In this document: piece by piece, positions 3,881-64,000 of the stretch
Position numbering within the stretch: position 1 is the first letter of the stretch
Layout of the letters: every line of letters starts with the position of its first letter
NCBI GenBank assembly: GCA_017515595.1
Contig: JAFWFL010000126.1
Location: 1,121 to 65,120, forward strand
Source of the DNA: Coriobacteriales bacterium
GTDB taxonomy: Bacteria > Actinomycetota > Coriobacteriia > Coriobacteriales > UMGS124
Direction: 5' to 3'
Length of the DNA stretch: 64,000 nt
Made by a program: the position numbers and the translations under genes
Notes under the pieces: generated by a model
What the model was told of the DNA's origin: nothing
Databases searched by the model: none
The model's input: the letters and a program-made list of their open reading frames with translations, nothing else

Positions 3881-5002
3881 TTAGAAGCGGGAACGCTTGA
3901 GGAAGTCAGGGATTTCAAACTGTGAATTCGGAGGCATTGGCGGCTGGGGCATTGGACGTGTTGACGCAGTCTGTGCGGGACGTGTGTTCATTGAACCAAA
4001 TTGCTGAACCGTGGTATTCCCAAGATCAAGCTTTGACTGGCCGCCGTCACCAAAACCGGTCGCGATAACCGTAATGCGAACCGTATCACCCAGGTTCTCG
4101 TCAATAACCGTACCAAAAATAAGGTTAACATCAGGACTTACCGCAGCGGCAACAATGCTTGCGGCGTCATTAACCTCGTGAAGACCGAGCTCAGGACCGC
4201 CGGCAATAGACAAAAGCACGCGGTCTGCGCCTTCGATTGTGCTCTCAAGCAGCGGGCTTGAAATTGCGGCGTTTGCAGCATCAACAGCACGGTTGTCACC
4301 GGAACCAATGCCAATACCCATCATTGCCGTGCCTGCGTCATTCATAATAGTGCGGACATCAGCAAAGTCGAGGTTAATGAGACCCGGGACCGTAATAAGA
4401 TCTGTAATACCCTGGATACCTTGACGGAGGACTTCGTCGGCCATCTTAAATGCCTCGGTGAACGAAATCTTTTTGTCTGCGACATCCAAAAGACGGTCAT
4501 TGGGGATTGTAATCAAGGTATCAACGCTCTGCGAAAGAATCTCGGTACCGGCTACTGCGTTACGACGGCGTACGGCGCCTTCAAAAATGAACGGCTTTGT
4601 TACAACGCCAACCGTAAGAGCACCTACATCATTCTTTGCAATGTCGGCTACAACAGGTGCCGCACCGGTACCGGTGCCGCCGCCTTCGCCGGCAGTAATA
4701 AAGACCATGTCTGCCCCGTCAAGCGCAGCTTTAATCTGATCACGAGACTCCTCGGCAGCACTGCGGCCAACCTCAGGGTTGGCGCCGGCACCAAGACCCT
4801 TGGTAAGGTCTGTGCCAATATGTACCTTGGCGTCTGCATCAGAAACAGCCAGAGCCTGTGCGTCGGTGTTTACAACCACAAATTCGACTCCTTGGACACC
4901 GGCCTCAATCATGCGGTTAACCGCATTTGAGCCACCGCCGCCCACGCCAACGACCTTGATAACGGCCATATAGTTTGACCCGGCGTCACCAGTTCCGTAC
5001 AT
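3881..5002 (-). CDS. ftsZ: Cell division GTPase FtsZ
   Basis: [17 protein letters not shown] and the tubulin signature [13 protein letters not shown] are present. The track start is TTG 5032. ATG 5002 (MYGTGD...) lies 5 nt after GGAGG. Confidence 0.97.
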
Positions 5003-5145
5003 CGCTACCTCCAAGTTTGTGAGTCGCCTCAACTGCCAATAAATATAAACTAGGACACAACTGCTAAACCGCTACTTTAGGGTTTTGAAGCTCTCTTTGA
5101 ACCCTAACGGTCCAGTTGAGCGTTACACCACAATCGCATCGGTTA

Positions 5146-57164: not shown

Positions 57165-58607
57165 TCAGAGCTCTTTGGTTATGCCGGGCATGCCACCTTG
57201 TTCTTGTTCGTAGGCTTGCATGGCTTCAAGAGTACCCTCTATGAGCTCGTCGAGAGTCCAGCCGAGGTTCTCGGCGCCGGAAGCTATGGTTTCGCGCGAG
57301 CAGCCCTCGGCAAAACGCTTGTCTTTGAACTTTTTCTTGACGCTCTTGGCATCCATGTCGAGGGTGGACTTACTGGGACGCATGCGTATTGCGGCATAAA
57401 TGAGGCCGGTAAGCTCGTCGGCCGCAAAGAGGATCTTCTCCATCTGGAGCTCGGGTTCCCAGGCAGAACCGGTCATGCCCCAGCCATGGCTCAAGGCATT
57501 CCGCATTATATGCGGGTCTATGCCCTCATCTTCAAAAATCTTAACGCCGGCAACACAGTGCTCTTCAGGATAAAGCTCAAAATCAATATCATGAAGAGCG
57601 CCTACCGCATACCAGTAATTTATGGGATCAGCTTCAACACCCTCGGGGACAGAAGCCTCGGTCTTTTGCGCATACCAGGCAAGCACCGCTCCAACAATAC
57701 GGCCATGTACCCGGTGATATTCCTCTTTATTGTACTTATCAAGCAACGCAAGGGCTTCTTCTTTGGTTGGTACTGTTGACATACGAGACTCCTTTTTACG
57801 TTGTTTTGCTTCTGTTTTGCGTTTTTGGTTGGCCTGGCGGTTGAGCATACACTCCACATAGCCTTCCATACCAAAAGGAATATAAGTTAAAGTAGAAAGA
57901 TCAGCGGGCATGTAATCTATAAGGCTCATGGACGCTGTTTGCTCCTGCGACTCCGGAAGCTCGCCGGGAACCGCATGAAGCGCATAAATCTTTGCACCTT
58001 GAGCAACAAGCTTTTGCTCGTACTCGCTTGTGGGGCTTTGGGTATCCTCAGCTCGCATGTCATCAGTAGACCAAACAACCTCAAAACCCGCAAGTGCCAG
58101 CTGCGTGAGAGTAAAATCTCTAAACGGCTGGCTGTCGGTCTTAAGCTCTATGCGGCCTCCCTCGCACAAAAGCGTGCGATACGTCATAAGGTTATCTAGA
58201 TATGTAAGGCGCTGAGCTGCAAACTTTTTGCGGGGAAACGGTGTCGAGAAATTCAGATAAATGCACGAGAGCTCTCCCGGAGCAAAAGCCTTGGGCAGGT
58301 CCTGAGCATGAAGCGTGCCAAACACCACGTTTTTAACCTGCTCCTCAAGGGCAGCCCTGCCCGCGCATGCCGTGCAGATAACCTCGGCATCAAGACCTAT
58401 ATAAAGTGTCTGAGGGTCACGCTTTGCGCTCTCAATAGTAAACCCGCCGCGCCCGCTCCCCATGTCAAGGCGGACTTCTTTTGCCTGAGGCATCCAGGTT
58501 TGAGCCCATAAACCGGCACGTTGAGCAGGTTCAAACTCAATAGCTGCAGCAGCGCGCTCCAGACGAACATCAATATCTTTGAGCATACGGCTCATCCGAG
58601 CATGCAT
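57165..58607 (-). CDS. trmB: Fusion of tRNA (guanine46-N7)-methyltransferase TrmB and an HD-domain hydrolase
   Basis: The N-terminal half has the TrmB SAM fold (DMGSGRGGFTIESAKRDPQTLYIGLD..., IYLNFSTPFPRKK). The C-terminal half has the HD pattern (HRVHGRIV...GALHDIDFE...LSHGWG). Both lie in one uninterrupted frame. Confidence 0.85.
   Translation of the reverse strand: MHARMSRMLKDIDVRLERAAAAIEFEPAQRAGLWAQTWMPQAKEVRLDMGSGRGGFTIESAKRDPQTLYIGLDAEVICTACAGRAALEEQVKNVVFGTLHAQDLPKAFAPGELSCIYLNFSTPFPRKKFAAQRLTYLDNLMTYRTLLCEGGRIELKTDSQPFRDFTLTQLALAGFEVVWSTDDMRAEDTQSPTSEYEQKLVAQGAKIYALHAVPGELPESQEQTASMSLIDYMPADLSTLTYIPFGMEGYVECMLNRQANQKRKTEAKQRKKESRMSTVPTKEEALALLDKYNKEEYHRVHGRIVGAVLAWYAQKTEASVPEGVEADPINYWYAVGALHDIDFELYPEEHCVAGVKIFEDEGIDPHIMRNALSHGWGMTGSAWEPELQMEKILFAADELTGLIYAAIRMRPSKSTLDMDAKSVKKKFKDKRFAEGCSRETIASGAENLGWTLDELIEGTLEAMQAYEQEQGGMPGITKEL
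57780..57794 (-). promoter_or_regulatory. Internal Shine-Dalgarno + ATG at the TrmB/HD domain junction
   Basis: The minus strand reads AAAAAGGAGTCTCGTATG, and the ATG (57782-57780) is the Met of ...ESRMSTVPTKEEALALL. Confidence 0.6.
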
Positions 58608-58610
58608 TAA

Positions 58611-60224
58611 TTACCACCACACCAGAAGAACAACATCATCGGGGTCCAAAACACCGGTCTCAGGGTCAAAATGGAGTTCGAGTCCGTTTAGCACATGTGT
58701 CCCGGATACCCGCGCGCCGTTCTCGTCCAAATAAATAATATCGCCTGATTCGAGACTCGCGAACTGCGAAGTCATGAGTTCGCCATTATAGTTGTAACAA
58801 TACCAAAGGCCGTCAGGTCCCAGGATCATTTTCCCGCGTACAAGGCGGGCAAATTCATCATAATACGAGATATACCCGTCAAATACAACCTGGGTATCCA
58901 CGGCGAGGGCAGCGGTTTCGTAATCTGCGTAGTATGTGTCTTCACCACGGTTAAAGGGGCCAAACATGAGCTCGCCGTACTCGTTATAATACGACGTCTG
59001 CTCCCGGTCATGAATAAACGTATCAGTAACCATAGCGCCGGTTATCTCGTCAAAATGCCGCCAGGCTTCATCAACCACTACATCGCCGTGAATGAGCGCA
59101 CCGTCAAGTATATAAAAGGTATTGCCCTTATATTCATACCAGCCGTCTCCGGCTTCCTGAATCTCGGCTTCGCTTGGCACCTGTACCGTCACAAACGGTG
59201 CATCATAAACGGTAAGATATGCCTGGTCTGCACTGTAATCACCAGGCGCAGCATAAAGCGCTTTCCAATCATAGTGAAGCTTACTTCCCTTGGTAAGGAA
59301 CGAGTAATCACCGCGCAAGAAGTAATCATGGTGCACAAGGCCCTCAAACCCCTGATCTGGGGTAGGGTCATCCCAGGTGACGTCCACATGGTACCAGCGG
59401 CCGTCAATACACACCATATTCCAGCTATGGTTCATAGTCTCGCTTGCAACCATGCAGGCGTCAATACCAACGCGCTTGAGCAAAAGCTGGTAGGCACGGC
59501 TGTACCCGTCGCATACCCCGGTATGCTCAACCAAAACACCGTACACATTAAACGGTGTGCGCGATGCAAAGTCTGACCCTAAAAACGTTGCTTCATTCGC
59601 ATTGATCAAAAGCGATTCATCAGCCTTATCATCCTGAGATAATCCGTCCGAGAAACCCATGATATCTTGATCAGATACTCCGGCAGCAAGTGCGACTTCT
59701 ATGTTATAGTGAGTTGTCCGTACCAAATAATCATGAAGGCACTGCGCCTTTTGAACATCAGTCATGCTATCATCAACCCAGCTGAGCGCCTGTGTAACCG
59801 CAGCCTCAACAGCATCGCGATATGCAGGAATTTCATCCACATCCATGGCGTAGGTAAACACTATGGAGTCAACAATACCGCCGTAAGAAGTTGTTGACAA
59901 CTTGGCCGGGTAGTCAAAATAAAAATACTGCGGATCAAGCGATATGCGTTCACGGGCAGCGCTGATATCTTCAAATGTCAGCCTGAGACCACCCATGTTG
60001 TTTATCTCTACCACAAGCTCGTCAAAAGCTGTACGCAACAGTTCCTCTGCGTTATAACCATAATAGTATGAAGTACCGTTTTCTATTACCACGCCGGCGC
60101 CGCCCTGCGTGCTGTCTGCTCCATGAGCTGTTTGCGTAAATGAACTCAGCGCGCAGATACAGGCAAGAACAATAACCGCTATAACGTACCCGGTAAAACG
60201 GGTTTTGCGTAGAAGACTCCTCAT
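58611..60224 (-). CDS. Secreted transglutaminase-like protein with degenerate C-terminal aromatic repeats
   Basis: Signal peptide VIAVIVLACICALSSFTQTAHG. Core GVCDGYSRAY / NHSWNMV / HVDVTWDD. C-terminal Y/W/G-rich ~20-aa repeats (WYEYKGNTFYILDG..., LWYCYNYNGELMT...). The ATG overlaps the upstream stop (ATGA). Confidence 0.85.
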   Translation of the reverse strand: MRSLLRKTRFTGYVIAVIVLACICALSSFTQTAHGADSTQGGAGVVIENGTSYYYGYNAEELLRTAFDELVVEINNMGGLRLTFEDISAARERISLDPQYFYFDYPAKLSTTSYGGIVDSIVFTYAMDVDEIPAYRDAVEAAVTQALSWVDDSMTDVQKAQCLHDYLVRTTHYNIEVALAAGVSDQDIMGFSDGLSQDDKADESLLINANEATFLGSDFASRTPFNVYGVLVEHTGVCDGYSRAYQLLLKRVGIDACMVASETMNHSWNMVCIDGRWYHVDVTWDDPTPDQGFEGLVHHDYFLRGDYSFLTKGSKLHYDWKALYAAPGDYSADQAYLTVYDAPFVTVQVPSEAEIQEAGDGWYEYKGNTFYILDGALIHGDVVVDEAWRHFDEITGAMVTDTFIHDREQTSYYNEYGELMFGPFNRGEDTYYADYETAALAVDTQVVFDGYISYYDEFARLVRGKMILGPDGLWYCYNYNGELMTSQFASLESGDIIYLDENGARVSGTHVLNGLELHFDPETGVLDPDDVVLLVWW

Positions 60225-63200
60225 GAATCCTCTCCTCGTGCTTTACGCGCCGCCTGCTCCAAAAGCCATGACGGAACCTCACTTATATGATCCTGCTGAG
60301 CATTTCGGCCAGTTTCCTGCGACAGCCGGTTTTCTTCCCGGTTAGAACGCCTGCGCCGGGAAGTGCGCCGTGACTCTTGTTCCTCAGGGGTTTCTCCTTC
60401 ATCGGTTAGTACATAGCTTCTCCGCCTGTCGCGGCCTGAAGACTCGGTACTTCCATACAGATCTTCCTGCTCAACCTGTGTCCGTCTTCTGCGGGACGTC
60501 CGTTCGCTTTGTATATGCGCTTCTTCAGAACCATACAGGTCTCGTGCATTGCGCCTTGAAGGTCTCATCTGAGGTTCATCATTTGTTGTCTGGTCGCTGC
60601 TCAGTTGTTTTGCAGGCGCATCATCATAATCAGGGGTAGTATAAGCACTAACCCGCCTGCGGCGTGCAGGACGCTCTTCCATAGCGTCAGAGTCAGTTTC
60701 TGCATACCCGCTACGACGGCTTACCGAGCGGTCACGGTATGAGGTATCCTGTGCGGCGCGCTCCGGTGATTTGCGAGCAGACGGCCGGCGATTCGCATAC
60801 TGTGAATCTATATCTTCAAGCGGGTCTTTTTCGCGCTGCTCTTCAAGCGTGCGGTCCCACTCTGACCTGACCGTCCTCTTTGGCCTCTCGCGGGATGTAC
60901 GTCTGCGTGCAGATGTTGGGGTTGCGTCTTCTTCAAGCTCCCAAGGGTAGGGCTCTCTTGCTTCTTTTGGTACCTGACGCTTGCGCTCTGTGGTGGTATT
61001 TGTCTGAACAACCGGTATTTGCGCAGTAGCTCCGCGTTTAACAAGAAAATCAGGAGTATTGGCCGGAGCGGGCTCGGGCTCGGCATCAACAAGCCACGGA
61101 TATGGCTTAAGTTTAATCTCCGGCTCGGGCTCAGGCCTTGGAGTCAGGGCAATCTCGGTAGCGCTCATCGCAGTAGCTGCAACCATGCCGGCACGCACAC
61201 TCTTGCGATCTTCTCGGGATTCTTCTTCATAAAGTGCGTGTACAACCCGGTAGCTTTCTTCAAAGGTGTCGAGAAGCTCTGCCATTGCAGAAAAACGGCC
61301 TGTCTGCGCCCAAACGGCACGGCTTCCCAAAACAGCAAAGCGCTGCCAGGCCATAAGAGCCGACACGTCTATTACCTGGGGGGTAGATGCGACCATATCT
61401 ATGGCTTCAACTGCGTTTTCATCGCAGCCAAGCACAAGGAGCACCTCGTCTGCTTTAACTCCGCACAGCTCCTGTGGTGTTGCGATAAGCCTTGTAAGAC
61501 GCGCTTCGAGCTGCTCGGCATCAATTCCTAATTCCTGCTCGTTCCAATGGTTACGCACGGCACGACGCAGAGCCTTCACCACACTCGTAAAGGGCGAAAC
61601 CACACATACTGCCTGGTTTTGATCATTGAGCCCCGGCACCACACGTGTGTTATACACATCAAACGCGCGATCCAAAAGACGCAGAACAGCATCTGTCTGC
61701 TCATTCACTGCATGATTCTTACCGCCATGTTCTACTCCCCCGCAATCTATCCAGCATGAGGTAGGCAGCATGTACTCACGGTCATCTTCGCGATCCGGAG
61801 CTTCGCTTATTAATCTCTGTGCATATCCCAATGTATTGGCAATTCCAAACATGGGTTCAGACGTATCTTTTTGGATAACAAGGGCTATGCCCGTGTGTGT
61901 GCTTCCAATATGGGAACTATAGCGGGAAGCGGTTGCCGCGGCTTCAAGCGCTGTTGTTACGCTGCCTGCACGCACAGTATCAAACTCCTGGGCAAGCGCC
62001 TGATACAAATCATGGAGAGCGGCATCGGCAATGCCGGGAACAAAGTGGTCGCCAATCACAACCGCACTCTTAGCCAGGCTCATGCTCCCCGCAATTTCCT
62101 GGGGCTCAACAAGATGAGCCTGATCTACAACAAGAACGCCCAAACTACGCTGAGGTATACCCTCAAGCAACATAGGCGCCGCATCAACACTTGTAATAAG
62201 CGCAGGTGACAGCACAAAGAGCGACTCCAAAAGAACGGGAAGAACTTCTTGCAAAGCGCCTGAGGGTACACGTCCCTCCCAGCAAGATGCGAGCATACGG
62301 TAATTTCGCTCAAGACCGGTATCATGTATAAAGGTCTTATGCACTTGCAGCGCACGGTAAAACAACTCTTCGCGGGCATTATCAAACGCTGCTGTAATCC
62401 ACGGACATGAGTGCTGCGAAGCTTCATTGTGAATCAAATCATCATAAAAATCATCATCGGCAGCAATAAGTGATGGTTTAACCGCACTTGCTGCCCGCAA
62501 GCGCGCATTGAGATTTTTCATATGCTTTTGGAGCATCTCAAGCTTGGCGGCAACCTGAGCACGCTGGGCACCTATCTGGGTAAGAACCTCTTTGGCGCCT
62601 TCGAGCTTTGCGCGGGCTCCATCCAAGTCATAACGCCTCGACAAAAGCTCATCAGCAATCTGTTCTTTACGCTCTTTCGAGAGACGCTTTTGGGTTTGCT
62701 CCTCGGTTTCCAAATCTGAGATCTCGCGCACAAGCCCGTCAAGGTGCTTTGAAGCTTCAGTGGCGTCTGCCTGCGCCTGCTGCAAACGCTTATCATACTC
62801 ATCAAGCTGCTTTTTATTCTTTTGGTACTCAGCACCCTTTTGGGCTACGGTAGCCTCCATTGATTCTTTGCATTCAAGCGCCTGCGCAACGTTGTCAAGC
62901 GTCTCACGAAGCTGCTCCACTTTGTTGAGCTGCTCCAAAAAGCGCGCTTTGGCTTCTTCCCAACGCAGGTATCCGCCGTTTTTGCGAAGTGTTCCGTTAT
63001 CACCGTCTGCGATGGTTCGCAACAGTTTTGCGGCATTGAGCAGATCTTCTTCGCCGGTAAGTTGCAAAGCCGCAAGTCCCCATGCCCCCTGGGGCATGCG
63101 CAGGGCCTGAGAAGCTTCGCGGGTAAAATAAACGTCCGCAGCATTGGTGCGTACCATATCAAATACACCGGTACGCGAATGTGCGGCATCAGCAAACTGA

Positions 63201-64000
63201 GCTCCTGTAATTTCTGCGACCATCTGCCTTGTAGCCAATGCCCTAGCCGGGGCTTCTATAACTGCCGAGAAACCCTTGAGTTCAGGCGGAAGCTCCAGGT
63301 ACACCTGACGCTCCGCTGGACCGGACAGAGCTTTTGATGCATGCTGCAACATGCACGTTGCGGGGTCAAGGTTCACCATTGCCCGGGCACGTTCAACCAC
63401 GGTTGCTGCAATAATACCTTTTATTAAAGAAACAGGATCAGTACCTTGTGCAGCCTGGATTGCATACAAAGGCACGCTGTCGCGCTTCTTTTGTTCTGTG
63501 GTTTGCGAAGACTGCGCCTCAGAAGTCTCTTTTGAATCGCCTTCCTTTTGCGCTGCTTCATTGTTTGCCTGTAAAAGTCCTGCCACCGAAATATTTGTTG
63601 CAAGATGCTGCATCAGATGCGCAACATTCTTAGACGGCCACACACCCAAAGGCACACTCTTGGGATGCAGCCACAAACGCATTGCCGGAATCGACATATC
63701 AAGCTCGACTTTCTCGGCATCTGCGGTACTTACAATTGCTTCAAGATAACGCCGTACTAAAGGGGGGATTGGCTTTGTAGCTGCTTTTGAAAGCTCCTCC
63801 ACGTGCTGGCTCGCACAGACATGCGGCTCGGTATCCCAAAGTGTCTGCCTGCTCTGCATCTGGCGAACCACACAGTCGCCTTTTATTGCACTTACGAGCG
63901 CGGTTTTCTCGAGCACTCCAAAAGCATGCTCAAGTATATTGGAGCAGATATCATAAGAAAGCTGCTGGGTTAGCGCTCGCAACGCAGCATCATTTTGTGA
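60221..64000 (-). CDS. Large SF1 (Upf1-like AAA_11/AAA_12) helicase-like protein with coiled-coil insertion and R/S/E-rich tail; N-terminus runs off the window
   Basis: The frame stays open from 63982 to the window edge (no stop in 63983-64000). Helicase-like blocks are recognisable but the catalytic residues are replaced (see finding). Coiled coil at about 62483-62980. Disordered tail at about 60224-61140. Confidence 0.8.
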   Translation of the reverse strand, partial: SQNDAALRALTQQLSYDICSNILEHAFGVLEKTALVSAIKGDCVVRQMQSRQTLWDTEPHVCASQHVEELSKAATKPIPPLVRRYLEAIVSTADAEKVELDMSIPAMRLWLHPKSVPLGVWPSKNVAHLMQHLATNISVAGLLQANNEAAQKEGDSKETSEAQSSQTTEQKKRDSVPLYAIQAAQGTDPVSLIKGIIAATVVERARAMVNLDPATCMLQHASKALSGPAERQVYLELPPELKGFSAVIEAPARALATRQMVAEITGAQFADAAHSRTGVFDMVRTNAADVYFTREASQALRMPQGAWGLAALQLTGEEDLLNAAKLLRTIADGDNGTLRKNGGYLRWEEAKARFLEQLNKVEQLRETLDNVAQALECKESMEATVAQKGAEYQKNKKQLDEYDKRLQQAQADATEASKHLDGLVREISDLETEEQTQKRLSKERKEQIADELLSRRYDLDGARAKLEGAKEVLTQIGAQRAQVAAKLEMLQKHMKNLNARLRAASAVKPSLIAADDDFYDDLIHNEASQHSCPWITAAFDNAREELFYRALQVHKTFIHDTGLERNYRMLASCWEGRVPSGALQEVLPVLLESLFVLSPALITSVDAAPMLLEGIPQRSLGVLVVDQAHLVEPQEIAGSMSLAKSAVVIGDHFVPGIADAALHDLYQALAQEFDTVRAGSVTTALEAAATASRYSSHIGSTHTGIALVIQKDTSEPMFGIANTLGYAQRLISEAPDREDDREYMLPTSCWIDCGGVEHGGKNHAVNEQTDAVLRLLDRAFDVYNTRVVPGLNDQNQAVCVVSPFTSVVKALRRAVRNHWNEQELGIDAEQLEARLTRLIATPQELCGVKADEVLLVLGCDENAVEAIDMVASTPQVIDVSALMAWQRFAVLGSRAVWAQTGRFSAMAELLDTFEESYRVVHALYEEESREDRKSVRAGMVAATAMSATEIALTPRPEPEPEIKLKPYPWLVDAEPEPAPANTPDFLVKRGATAQIPVVQTNTTTERKRQVPKEAREPYPWELEEDATPTSARRRTSRERPKRTVRSEWDRTLEEQREKDPLEDIDSQYANRRPSARKSPERAAQDTSYRDRSVSRRSGYAETDSDAMEERPARRRRVSAYTTPDYDDAPAKQLSSDQTTNDEPQMRPSRRNARDLYGSEEAHIQSERTSRRRRTQVEQEDLYGSTESSGRDRRRSYVLTDEGETPEEQESRRTSRRRRSNREENRLSQETGRNAQQDHISEVPSWLLEQAARKARGEDS

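Follow-up and report, generated by a model that had tools for sequence, protein, structure and literature searches.

A candidate pseudo-helicase of Upf1-like ancestry encoded in a Coriobacteriales genome

Can a helicase homologue that appears to have lost its catalytic machinery still be the product of a working gene, and what role might such a protein have? This question is raised by a long minus-strand open reading frame (ORF) at the end of the 64,000-nucleotide stretch of Coriobacteriales DNA analysed here (contig JAFWFL010000126.1; the whole of this stretch is referred to as the window, and the product of the ORF as the window protein). An initial annotation, made by eye from the letters and their translations, had read the ORF as a homologue of the superfamily 1 (SF1) Upf1-like helicases in which all alignable catalytic motifs appear decayed and which is interrupted by a coiled coil. 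The answer that we regard as likely is that the locus encodes an ATPase-dead pseudo-helicase, that the gene is alive, and that its product serves a non-catalytic role as a scaffold or in binding.

The relationship of the window protein to helicases becomes visible through its relatives. A Pfam scan of the protein itself returned no helicase model even at E<=1, and the gathering score of AAA_11/AAA_12 was not reached; the motifs that drive these models are gone. In the NCBIfam collection only the coiled-coil regions of SMC and Rad50 were matched, and the match to the PADLOC profile MkoC was weak and partial: at E=1.6e-9 it aligns residues 352-820 of the protein with positions 407-882 of the 1136-position profile. 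When 5.8 billion proteins were searched with a word index, only a near-identical fragment (P0001) and a protein of 1717 residues (P0002) were obtained. The latter carries Pfam AAA_11/AAA_12 and is related to the window protein over about 800 collinear residues as judged by BLASTP (E=3e-41). An exhaustive phmmer search of 1.84 billion cluster representatives then gave 1590 relatives, of which 188 reached E<=1e-30. Apart from the protein itself, the strongest match is P0003 (31% identity, E=4e-96), and the identity of the window protein to its relatives ranges from 21 to 31%. Active relatives score above threshold for Pfam AAA_11/AAA_12 and match MkoC with E-values of 1e-61 to 1e-66 over profile positions ~260-950, i.e. 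its helicase part. The proteins of this family are 900-1700 residues long and bear only the names 'AAA domain-containing protein', 'DEAD/DEAH box helicase' or 'ATP-binding protein' in their sources; WP_227104224.1 of Intestinibacillus massiliensis is an example. The homology covers both RecA-like domains, as in Upf1-like SF1B proteins. The window protein is thus a true but very diverged Upf1-like SF1 helicase homologue, and the family to which it belongs is large, uncharacterised and made up of stand-alone proteins.

The catalytic motifs were scored in MAFFT alignments with 56 and 149 relatives (57 and 150 sequences, respectively). The motifs GPPGTGKT, DEAGQ, GDPxQ, HRRC, TVHxFQGKE and TRAK are nearly universal in the family, and the window protein has none of them (Table 1). 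It deviates from the consensus at 10 of the 13 scored catalytic positions, and this consensus is held by 121-147 of the 149 relatives per column. One of the 13 columns, that of the motif III Gln, was mis-indexed, and the loss of this Gln was read directly from BLASTP and the alignments. The Walker A pattern GxxGxGK[ST] is missing, and DQAHL takes the place of DEAGQ in Walker B, where the Asp (D626) is retained and the catalytic Glu, present in 147 of 149 relatives, is lost. Motifs III, IV, V and VI read GDHFVPG, IQKDT, TPQELCGVK and ALMAW. The strings picked out by eye in the initial annotation, namely AAQGTDPVS, VLVVDQAHL, VVIGDHFVPG, IQKDTSEPMFGIANTLGY within the motif IV block and VCVVSPFTSVV, fall exactly on motifs I, II, III and IV and on the SPF block in both the BLASTP alignment to P0002 and the MAFFT alignments; their coordinates were correct, and the order of the blocks agrees with that of the family. 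These alignments furthermore revealed the losses at motifs Ia, V and VI. What has been retained is structural: PLG.WPS..LMQ, PMF..N...Y, SPF, LGCD, CPW and scattered Gly and Pro residues.

The ORF ends with a stop codon at 60221-60223 and is open up to the window edge at 64000, so that the N-terminus lies outside the window, as had been noted. The missing part was taken from L002, a metagenome contig of 2382 nucleotides that is 99.9% identical to the window. L002 spans window positions 62169-64000 plus 568 nucleotides past the window end, with 1832 bases common to both. It adds 164 codons, beginning MHTLNDVLEYWYALEYL, to the 1259 codons of the window, which gives a full-length protein of 1423 residues. 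The start codon is preceded by a GAGGAG ribosome-binding site within the 76 nucleotides of upstream sequence present in L002. The recovered N-terminus carries no P-loop, and the full protein of 1423 residues contains neither GK[ST] nor GxxGxGK[ST], which rules out an intact site concealed in the N-terminus. Since the residues for ATP binding and hydrolysis and those that couple hydrolysis to movement are lost, no ATP-driven translocase work should be possible, and the window protein is predicted to carry out neither ATP-dependent translocation nor unwinding.

The fold, which the initial annotation had supposed to be kept, was modelled with AlphaFold2 for residues 1-940 of the window ORF from a 57-sequence alignment. 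The model is confident (predicted local distance difference test, pLDDT, 84.4; predicted template modelling score, pTM, 0.86). Foldseek comparison with the PDB returned Senataxin/Sen1 (3e-10) and Upf1 (1e-9), as well as Dna2, IGHMBP2, Aquarius and ZNFX1, with probability 1.00 (8ftm, 2xzo, 5ean and 4b3g are among the entries), and the two RecA-like domains lie in the Upf1-type arrangement. The sequence profile of the family also retrieves these eukaryotic helicases. The Upf1-like SF1B fold is thus predicted to be kept. The coiled coil rich in K, E, Q and L, about 160 residues long, is indeed present and forms a two-helix antiparallel hairpin, but it is not a peculiar interruption of this protein: the segment between the conserved anchors comprises 179 residues as compared to a family median of 187, and active members carry the hairpin as well. 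It is an inherited domain of the family, in which the hairpin measures about 185 residues. The N-terminal domain, modelled from L002 (pLDDT 77.8), found no significant Foldseek match in the PDB (best E 0.9).

Several observations show how such a protein has been maintained. The terminal branch leading to it, at 3.2-3.4 substitutions per site, is about 3.5 times as long as the family median (0.93), and yet the frame of 1423 codons (4.3 kb) is still open and undisrupted across this long branch. In many independent runs, from gut as well as anaerobic digesters, contigs match the gene at 95-100% identity. Variants were pooled as distinct changes from 12 DNA and four metatranscriptome runs and compared to a neutral nonsynonymous fraction of 0.77. 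In the core, 10 synonymous stand against 4 nonsynonymous changes (binomial P=1.9e-4), and the latter are all conservative (I>V, M>V, S>A and N>S). In the C-terminal tail, nonsynonymous changes number 11 and synonymous ones 9 (P=0.03), so that constraint is weaker there. The gene is held under purifying selection in its core. Furthermore, contigs lying on the gene and on both downstream genes were found in four independent digester metatranscriptomes, and the gene is probably expressed. A helicase fold with its catalytic residues lost, purifying selection and transcript contigs are accordingly all found together at this locus, as in a pseudo-helicase.

A number of points weigh against a live gene with a role of its own. 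The variant counts are small and drawn from assembler contigs, not from reads, and the metatranscriptome contigs might stem from carried-over DNA. L002 differs from the window at two places only, and both differences are damaging: an in-frame deletion of 18 nucleotides (window 63401-63418) removes GIIAAT directly behind the decayed P-loop, and at window position 62364 a TTG codon has become the nonsense codon TAG. The likely source run of L002 (X2) has about 6x coverage, and its contigs break at exactly both sites of difference, so that a segregating null allele or a low-coverage assembly error could be the cause. As alleles, the two changes hint that some strains can do without the gene. No orthologue with more than 31% identity was found in 15 billion proteins, which leaves a singleton lineage; conservation across species is therefore not demonstrable, and function cannot be inferred from co-evolution. 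The order of the genes is not conserved either, as the trmB genes of Atopobiaceae relatives have other neighbours than the trmB fusion found downstream of the gene here.

Among the alternatives, a decaying relic fares best, although we regard it as rather unlikely. A mobile accessory or defence helicase would have landed in the chromosome and would now be drifting towards a pseudogene, with a residual frame and without a role. The lack of orthologues, the very long terminal branch, the nonsense codon and deletion as the sole differences of L002 and the missing synteny would all suit such a relic. The same applies to the isolation of two other decayed family members, P0057 and P0061, and to the distribution of the active family, which is mostly plasmid-borne: by tblastn it is found on 616 plasmid records (530 conjugative, 506 Klebsiella) and in three phage records. 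What argues against a relic, however, is that all 1423 codons have remained in an open frame through about 3 substitutions per site, and so do the excess of synonymous changes in the core together with the conservative nature of the remainder, and the transcription evidence and the translational coupling to the next gene. Moreover, Gly, Pro and hydrophobic core residues have been kept to a degree that allows a confident AlphaFold2 model.

The preferred reading of an ATPase-dead protein in use runs as follows. The protein descends from stand-alone, often plasmid-borne Upf1-like SF1B helicases with an MkoC-like core. It has kept the N-terminal alpha/beta domain, RecA1 with its antiparallel hairpin, and RecA2. 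Lost are the residues for ATP binding and hydrolysis (the Walker A Lys and Gly, the Walker B Glu and the motif VI Arg) and those coupling hydrolysis to the movement of nucleic acid (motifs Ia, III, IV and V). The folded core might now act as a static platform that binds protein or nucleic acid, and the Arg/Glu-rich tail, a recent gain in which PYPW and DLYGS are each duplicated, might recruit partners or nucleic acid; the protein would be expressed together with the two downstream genes. One more point against this reading concerns the mode of binding. The canonical motifs that contact nucleic acid (Ia, III, IV and V) are decayed as well, which makes binding through the usual channel doubtful, and we therefore lean towards a protein-binding or structural role over that of a static RNA clamp.

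In a wider version of this idea, mobile Upf1- or Mokosh-like helicases would repeatedly have been turned into chromosomal non-catalytic proteins. In the present case the tail would have been gained along with a new cellular function, for instance as a hub for RNA or protein, or as a decoy or sensor that binds the phage or plasmid factors also bound by its active relatives but works without ATP hydrolysis. We consider this generalisation speculative and about as improbable as the relic.

The protein could also be the dead subunit of a heteromer whose active paralogue or other motor supplies the ATPase, with the dead core recognising or guiding the substrate. RecC of the RecBCD complex is a dead helicase fold with RecB as its partner, and the same holds for AddB with AddA; these are the best-known bacterial uses of dead SF1 folds. 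The retention of the whole architecture including hairpin and N-terminal domain would be in keeping with a sister protein as partner. Against this stands that no paralogue is encoded within the 64-kb window, that active members of the family occur singly, in changing surroundings and without a second copy beside them, and that Mokosh type II has been reported to be monomeric (10.1101/2025.07.10.664194). On balance a heteromer appears improbable, somewhat more so than a relic.

Activity as an NTPase or helicase through a non-canonical or relocated nucleotide site is very unlikely. The Walker B Asp D626 is retained, and some atypical kinases and ATPases are known to work without canonical motifs. 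However, no P-loop-like string occurs in the 1423 residues. Pro stands where Walker A has its Lys, Gln where the catalytic Glu is expected and Met at the position of the motif VI Arg, and motifs III and V are gone. In Mokosh, a mutated ATP-binding site is by itself enough to abolish function (Millman et al. 2022, 10.1101/2022.05.11.491447). Finally, a chimeric or error-ridden ORF can practically be dismissed: the window apparently comes from a metagenome-assembled genome (MAG), but many independent gut and digester runs carry the sequence at 99-100% identity, and the divergence is spread evenly over about 900 aligned residues and not localised.

The active relatives are stand-alone genes with varying neighbours, among them flagellins, two-component systems, a Fic gene and genes for type IV secretion system (T4SS) coupling proteins. 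The occurrence of the family on plasmids and phages suits an accessory gene, possibly one acting in defence or plasmid competition. At the P0002 locus (L001:6183-16040), a Clp protease gene, a gene for a TraG/TrwB-like T4SS coupling protein and two large unannotated ORFs adjoin, and P0002 probably lies on a conjugative element.

Catalytic decay is not limited to the window protein. Among the 149 best representatives, P0057 (L009:8001-10973, from a Eubacteriaceae MAG) and P0061 (L008:883-3888) are fully decayed, and P0055, P0019 and P0005 are partly decayed. The decayed members sit on long branches of their own, and their grouping in trees is unstable. A search for orthologues of P0057 returned none beyond its single cluster. 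A shared clade of dead proteins was considered on the basis of a first tree that joined the window protein and P0061 with a value of 100 in the SH-like approximate likelihood ratio test (SH-aLRT). It was rejected: in leave-one-out trees the window protein moves to P0003/P0005 and P0061 to P0004/P0022/P0025, and the initial joining is therefore read as long-branch attraction. The catalytic losses in the family have probably been independent and repeated. The initial annotation had called a dead helicase scaffold with a coiled coil unusual for a bacterial protein; dead helicases do have bacterial precedents, namely RecC, the PriA protein of Deinococcus radiodurans (PMC4504706) and at least two more fully decayed members in the same family. 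Further known pseudo-helicases are yeast Utp25 (PMC9539457) and SLFN14 with its inactive helicase domain (PMC12135189). The gene upstream of P0061 (L008:1-876, separated by a 7-nucleotide gap) shows a sub-threshold match to choline-binding repeats (E=0.0046). A wall-repeat neighbour shared with the gene in the window was considered and discarded, as BLASTP detected no real similarity between the two neighbours; the resemblance is probably a coincidence.

The initial annotation had let the feature extend over 61141-64000. This region is real, but the ORF runs on to 60221 in the form of a charged, lineage-specific tail. There are 362 residues beyond the last conserved helicase column, as compared to a median of 26 in the class of about 1000 residues. 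The tail is rich in Ser, Thr and Pro, looks disordered and of low complexity, and evolves faster than the core. It contains duplicated motifs, PYPW at 61091-61108 and 60938-60955 and DLYGS at 60521-60544 and 60443-60466, as well as three RRRR patches. None of these three motifs was found elsewhere in the 64-kb window; they are confined to the tail.

The stop codon of the gene overlaps the start codon of the next gene in the sequence ATGA. This overlap, together with the ribosome-binding site GGAGAGGA inside the end of the ORF, suggests translational coupling. The product of the next gene is transglutaminase-like, secreted and equipped with wall repeats of the choline-binding type, and the gene after it encodes a fusion of TrmB, the tRNA m7G methyltransferase, with an HD domain. 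No terminator-like site was found at either junction of the three-gene array, and the three genes look co-transcribed. A conserved operon was ruled out by the differing neighbours of the trmB genes of relatives mentioned above. The HD half of the TrmB-HD protein (57165-58607) is about 50% identical to a domain at the end of many proteins of about 700 residues that carry the tRNA-synthetase domains PF01336 and PF00152, which marks it as an apparent module fused to different tRNA-related enzymes in different lineages.

With regard to the species, the FtsZ protein encoded in the window (3881-5032, minus strand) reaches 82% identity to Coriobacteriales MAGs, the maximum among GTDB species representatives, and about 70% identity to Lancefieldella, Atopobium and Olsenella, which places the host among the uncultured Coriobacteriales. 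The species of the window seems to be absent from the GTDB species-representative collection. A search for related loci in GTDB species genomes with the N-terminal 703 residues of the window protein found nothing.

Table 1. Features of the pseudo-helicase gene and its downstream neighbours (window coordinates; strand in brackets)
Feature	Position	Window sequence	Family consensus	Remarks
Pseudo-helicase ORF	60221..64000 (-)			1259 codons in the window, 5' end cut by the window edge
Family-specific N-terminal alpha/beta domain, C-terminal part	63665..64000 (-)			Remainder outside the window; no solved structure with similar fold
Family signature just before motif I	63608..63652 (-)	PLGVWPS..LMQ	PLGKWPS..LMQQ.AIN	Retained
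Motif I (Walker A)	63428..63454 (-)	AAQGTDPVS	GPPGTGKTT	Lys to Pro, Gly residues lost
Motif I, longer block		IQAAQGTDPVSLIKGIIA	VNGPPGTGKTTLLKEIIA	
Motif Ia region	63203..63259 (-)	IEAPARALATRQMVAEITG	VASNNN.AVENIS.ELP	Decayed
Antiparallel coiled-coil hairpin	62489..62962 (-)			Insertion in RecA1 that separates motifs Ia and II; helices 347-429 and 435-504
Motif II (Walker B)	62111..62137 (-)	VLVVDQAHL	LIIDEAGQ	Glu to Gln, GQ to HL
Motif III	62033..62062 (-)	VVIGDHFVPG	IVGDPLQVEP	Gln lost
Motif IV block	61823..61882 (-)	LVIQKDTSEPMFGIANTLGY	LVVHRRC..PMF.ISN.IAY	HRRC lost, structural PMF..N...Y kept
Motif IV core		QKDTSEPMFGIANTLGY	HRRC..PMF.ISN.IAY	
SPF block	61577..61609 (-)	VCVVSPFTSVV	LYIISPF..V	Retained structural block
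Motif V	61421..61486 (-)	IATPQELCGVKADEVLLVLGCD	GTVHTFQGKEA.EVI.VLGCD	Decayed
Motif V core		ATPQELCGVKADEV	GTVHTFQGKEA.EV	
Motif VI	61322..61372 (-)	IDVSALMAWQRFAVLGS	LNVAVTRAKYR..IGD	Arg to Met
Motif VI core		DVSALMAWQR	NVAVTRAKYR	
Lineage-specific C-terminal tail	60224..61195 (-)			324 residues; 16% Arg, 12% Glu; 62 basic and 62 acidic residues
ATGA overlap, pseudo-helicase stop and next gene start	60221..60224 (-)	GGAGAGGA		GGAGAGGA is the ribosome-binding site inside the ORF end
Secreted transglutaminase-like protein, choline-binding-type wall repeats	58611..60224 (-)			Downstream gene
TrmB-HD fusion	57165..58607 (-)			Starts 3 nucleotides after the preceding stop codon

Helicase-derived pseudoenzymes are few, and most known ones are eukaryotic or belong to repair complexes; the window protein would be a clean bacterial example from the Upf1/Mokosh clade. 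In addition, the analysis brings to light an uncharacterised family with 1590 relatives that is present on hundreds of conjugative plasmids and possesses an N-terminal domain without a fold match in the PDB. If its dead copies have gained roles, accessory or defence motors would have been recycled into scaffolds; if they have none, they provide a gauge of how long a large ORF outlives its chemistry. Since only one uncultured species of gut and digester has the protein, its practical value is limited.

When compared to known systems, the window protein is closest in predicted structure to Upf1, Senataxin (Sen1), IGHMBP2 and Dna2, which are the best matches to the model (E 1e-8 to 3e-10). These are active ATPases with other accessory domains (CH, 1B barrel, nuclease), whereas the window protein has an unmatched N-terminal domain, a long hairpin and, as predicted, a dead motor. 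With the uncharacterised Upf1-like family it shares the fold and the collinear succession of N-terminal domain, PLGxWPS/LMQ, RecA1, hairpin of about 180 residues, RecA2, SPF and GCD blocks. It differs from nearly all of these relatives, whose motifs are intact, in the loss of every motif. The additional charged tail of 324 residues, the branch of about 3.5 times the median length and the chromosomal position in an apparent operon with unrelated genes also set it apart.

MkoC of Mokosh type II has the same COG1112/Upf1-like core and is the best curated profile for the family (~260-950 of 1136). Mokosh type II carries a C-terminal PLD nuclease, and mutation of its ATP-binding site alone abolishes defence (Millman et al. 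2022, 10.1101/2022.05.11.491447). In contrast, neither the window protein nor its relatives have a C-terminal PLD nuclease or a conserved HxK(x)4D: this motif is absent from the full-length window protein and occurs in 14 of 150 family members at scattered, non-conserved positions. The window protein furthermore lacks the ATP-binding site needed for Mokosh defence. By these features, the window protein and its family would not be Mokosh type II in the strict sense.

The known pseudo-helicases RecC, PriA, Utp25 and SLFN14 resemble the window protein in having a preserved fold, no catalytic motifs and a role other than that of a motor for which they have been retained. They come from different helicase families, or their partners and pathways are defined, whereas the window protein derives from a Mokosh-like accessory helicase and is found in one species only. 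Overall, dead helicase folds are already established; what is notable here is the completeness of the loss, the Mokosh-like origin and the hint of recurrence within one family.

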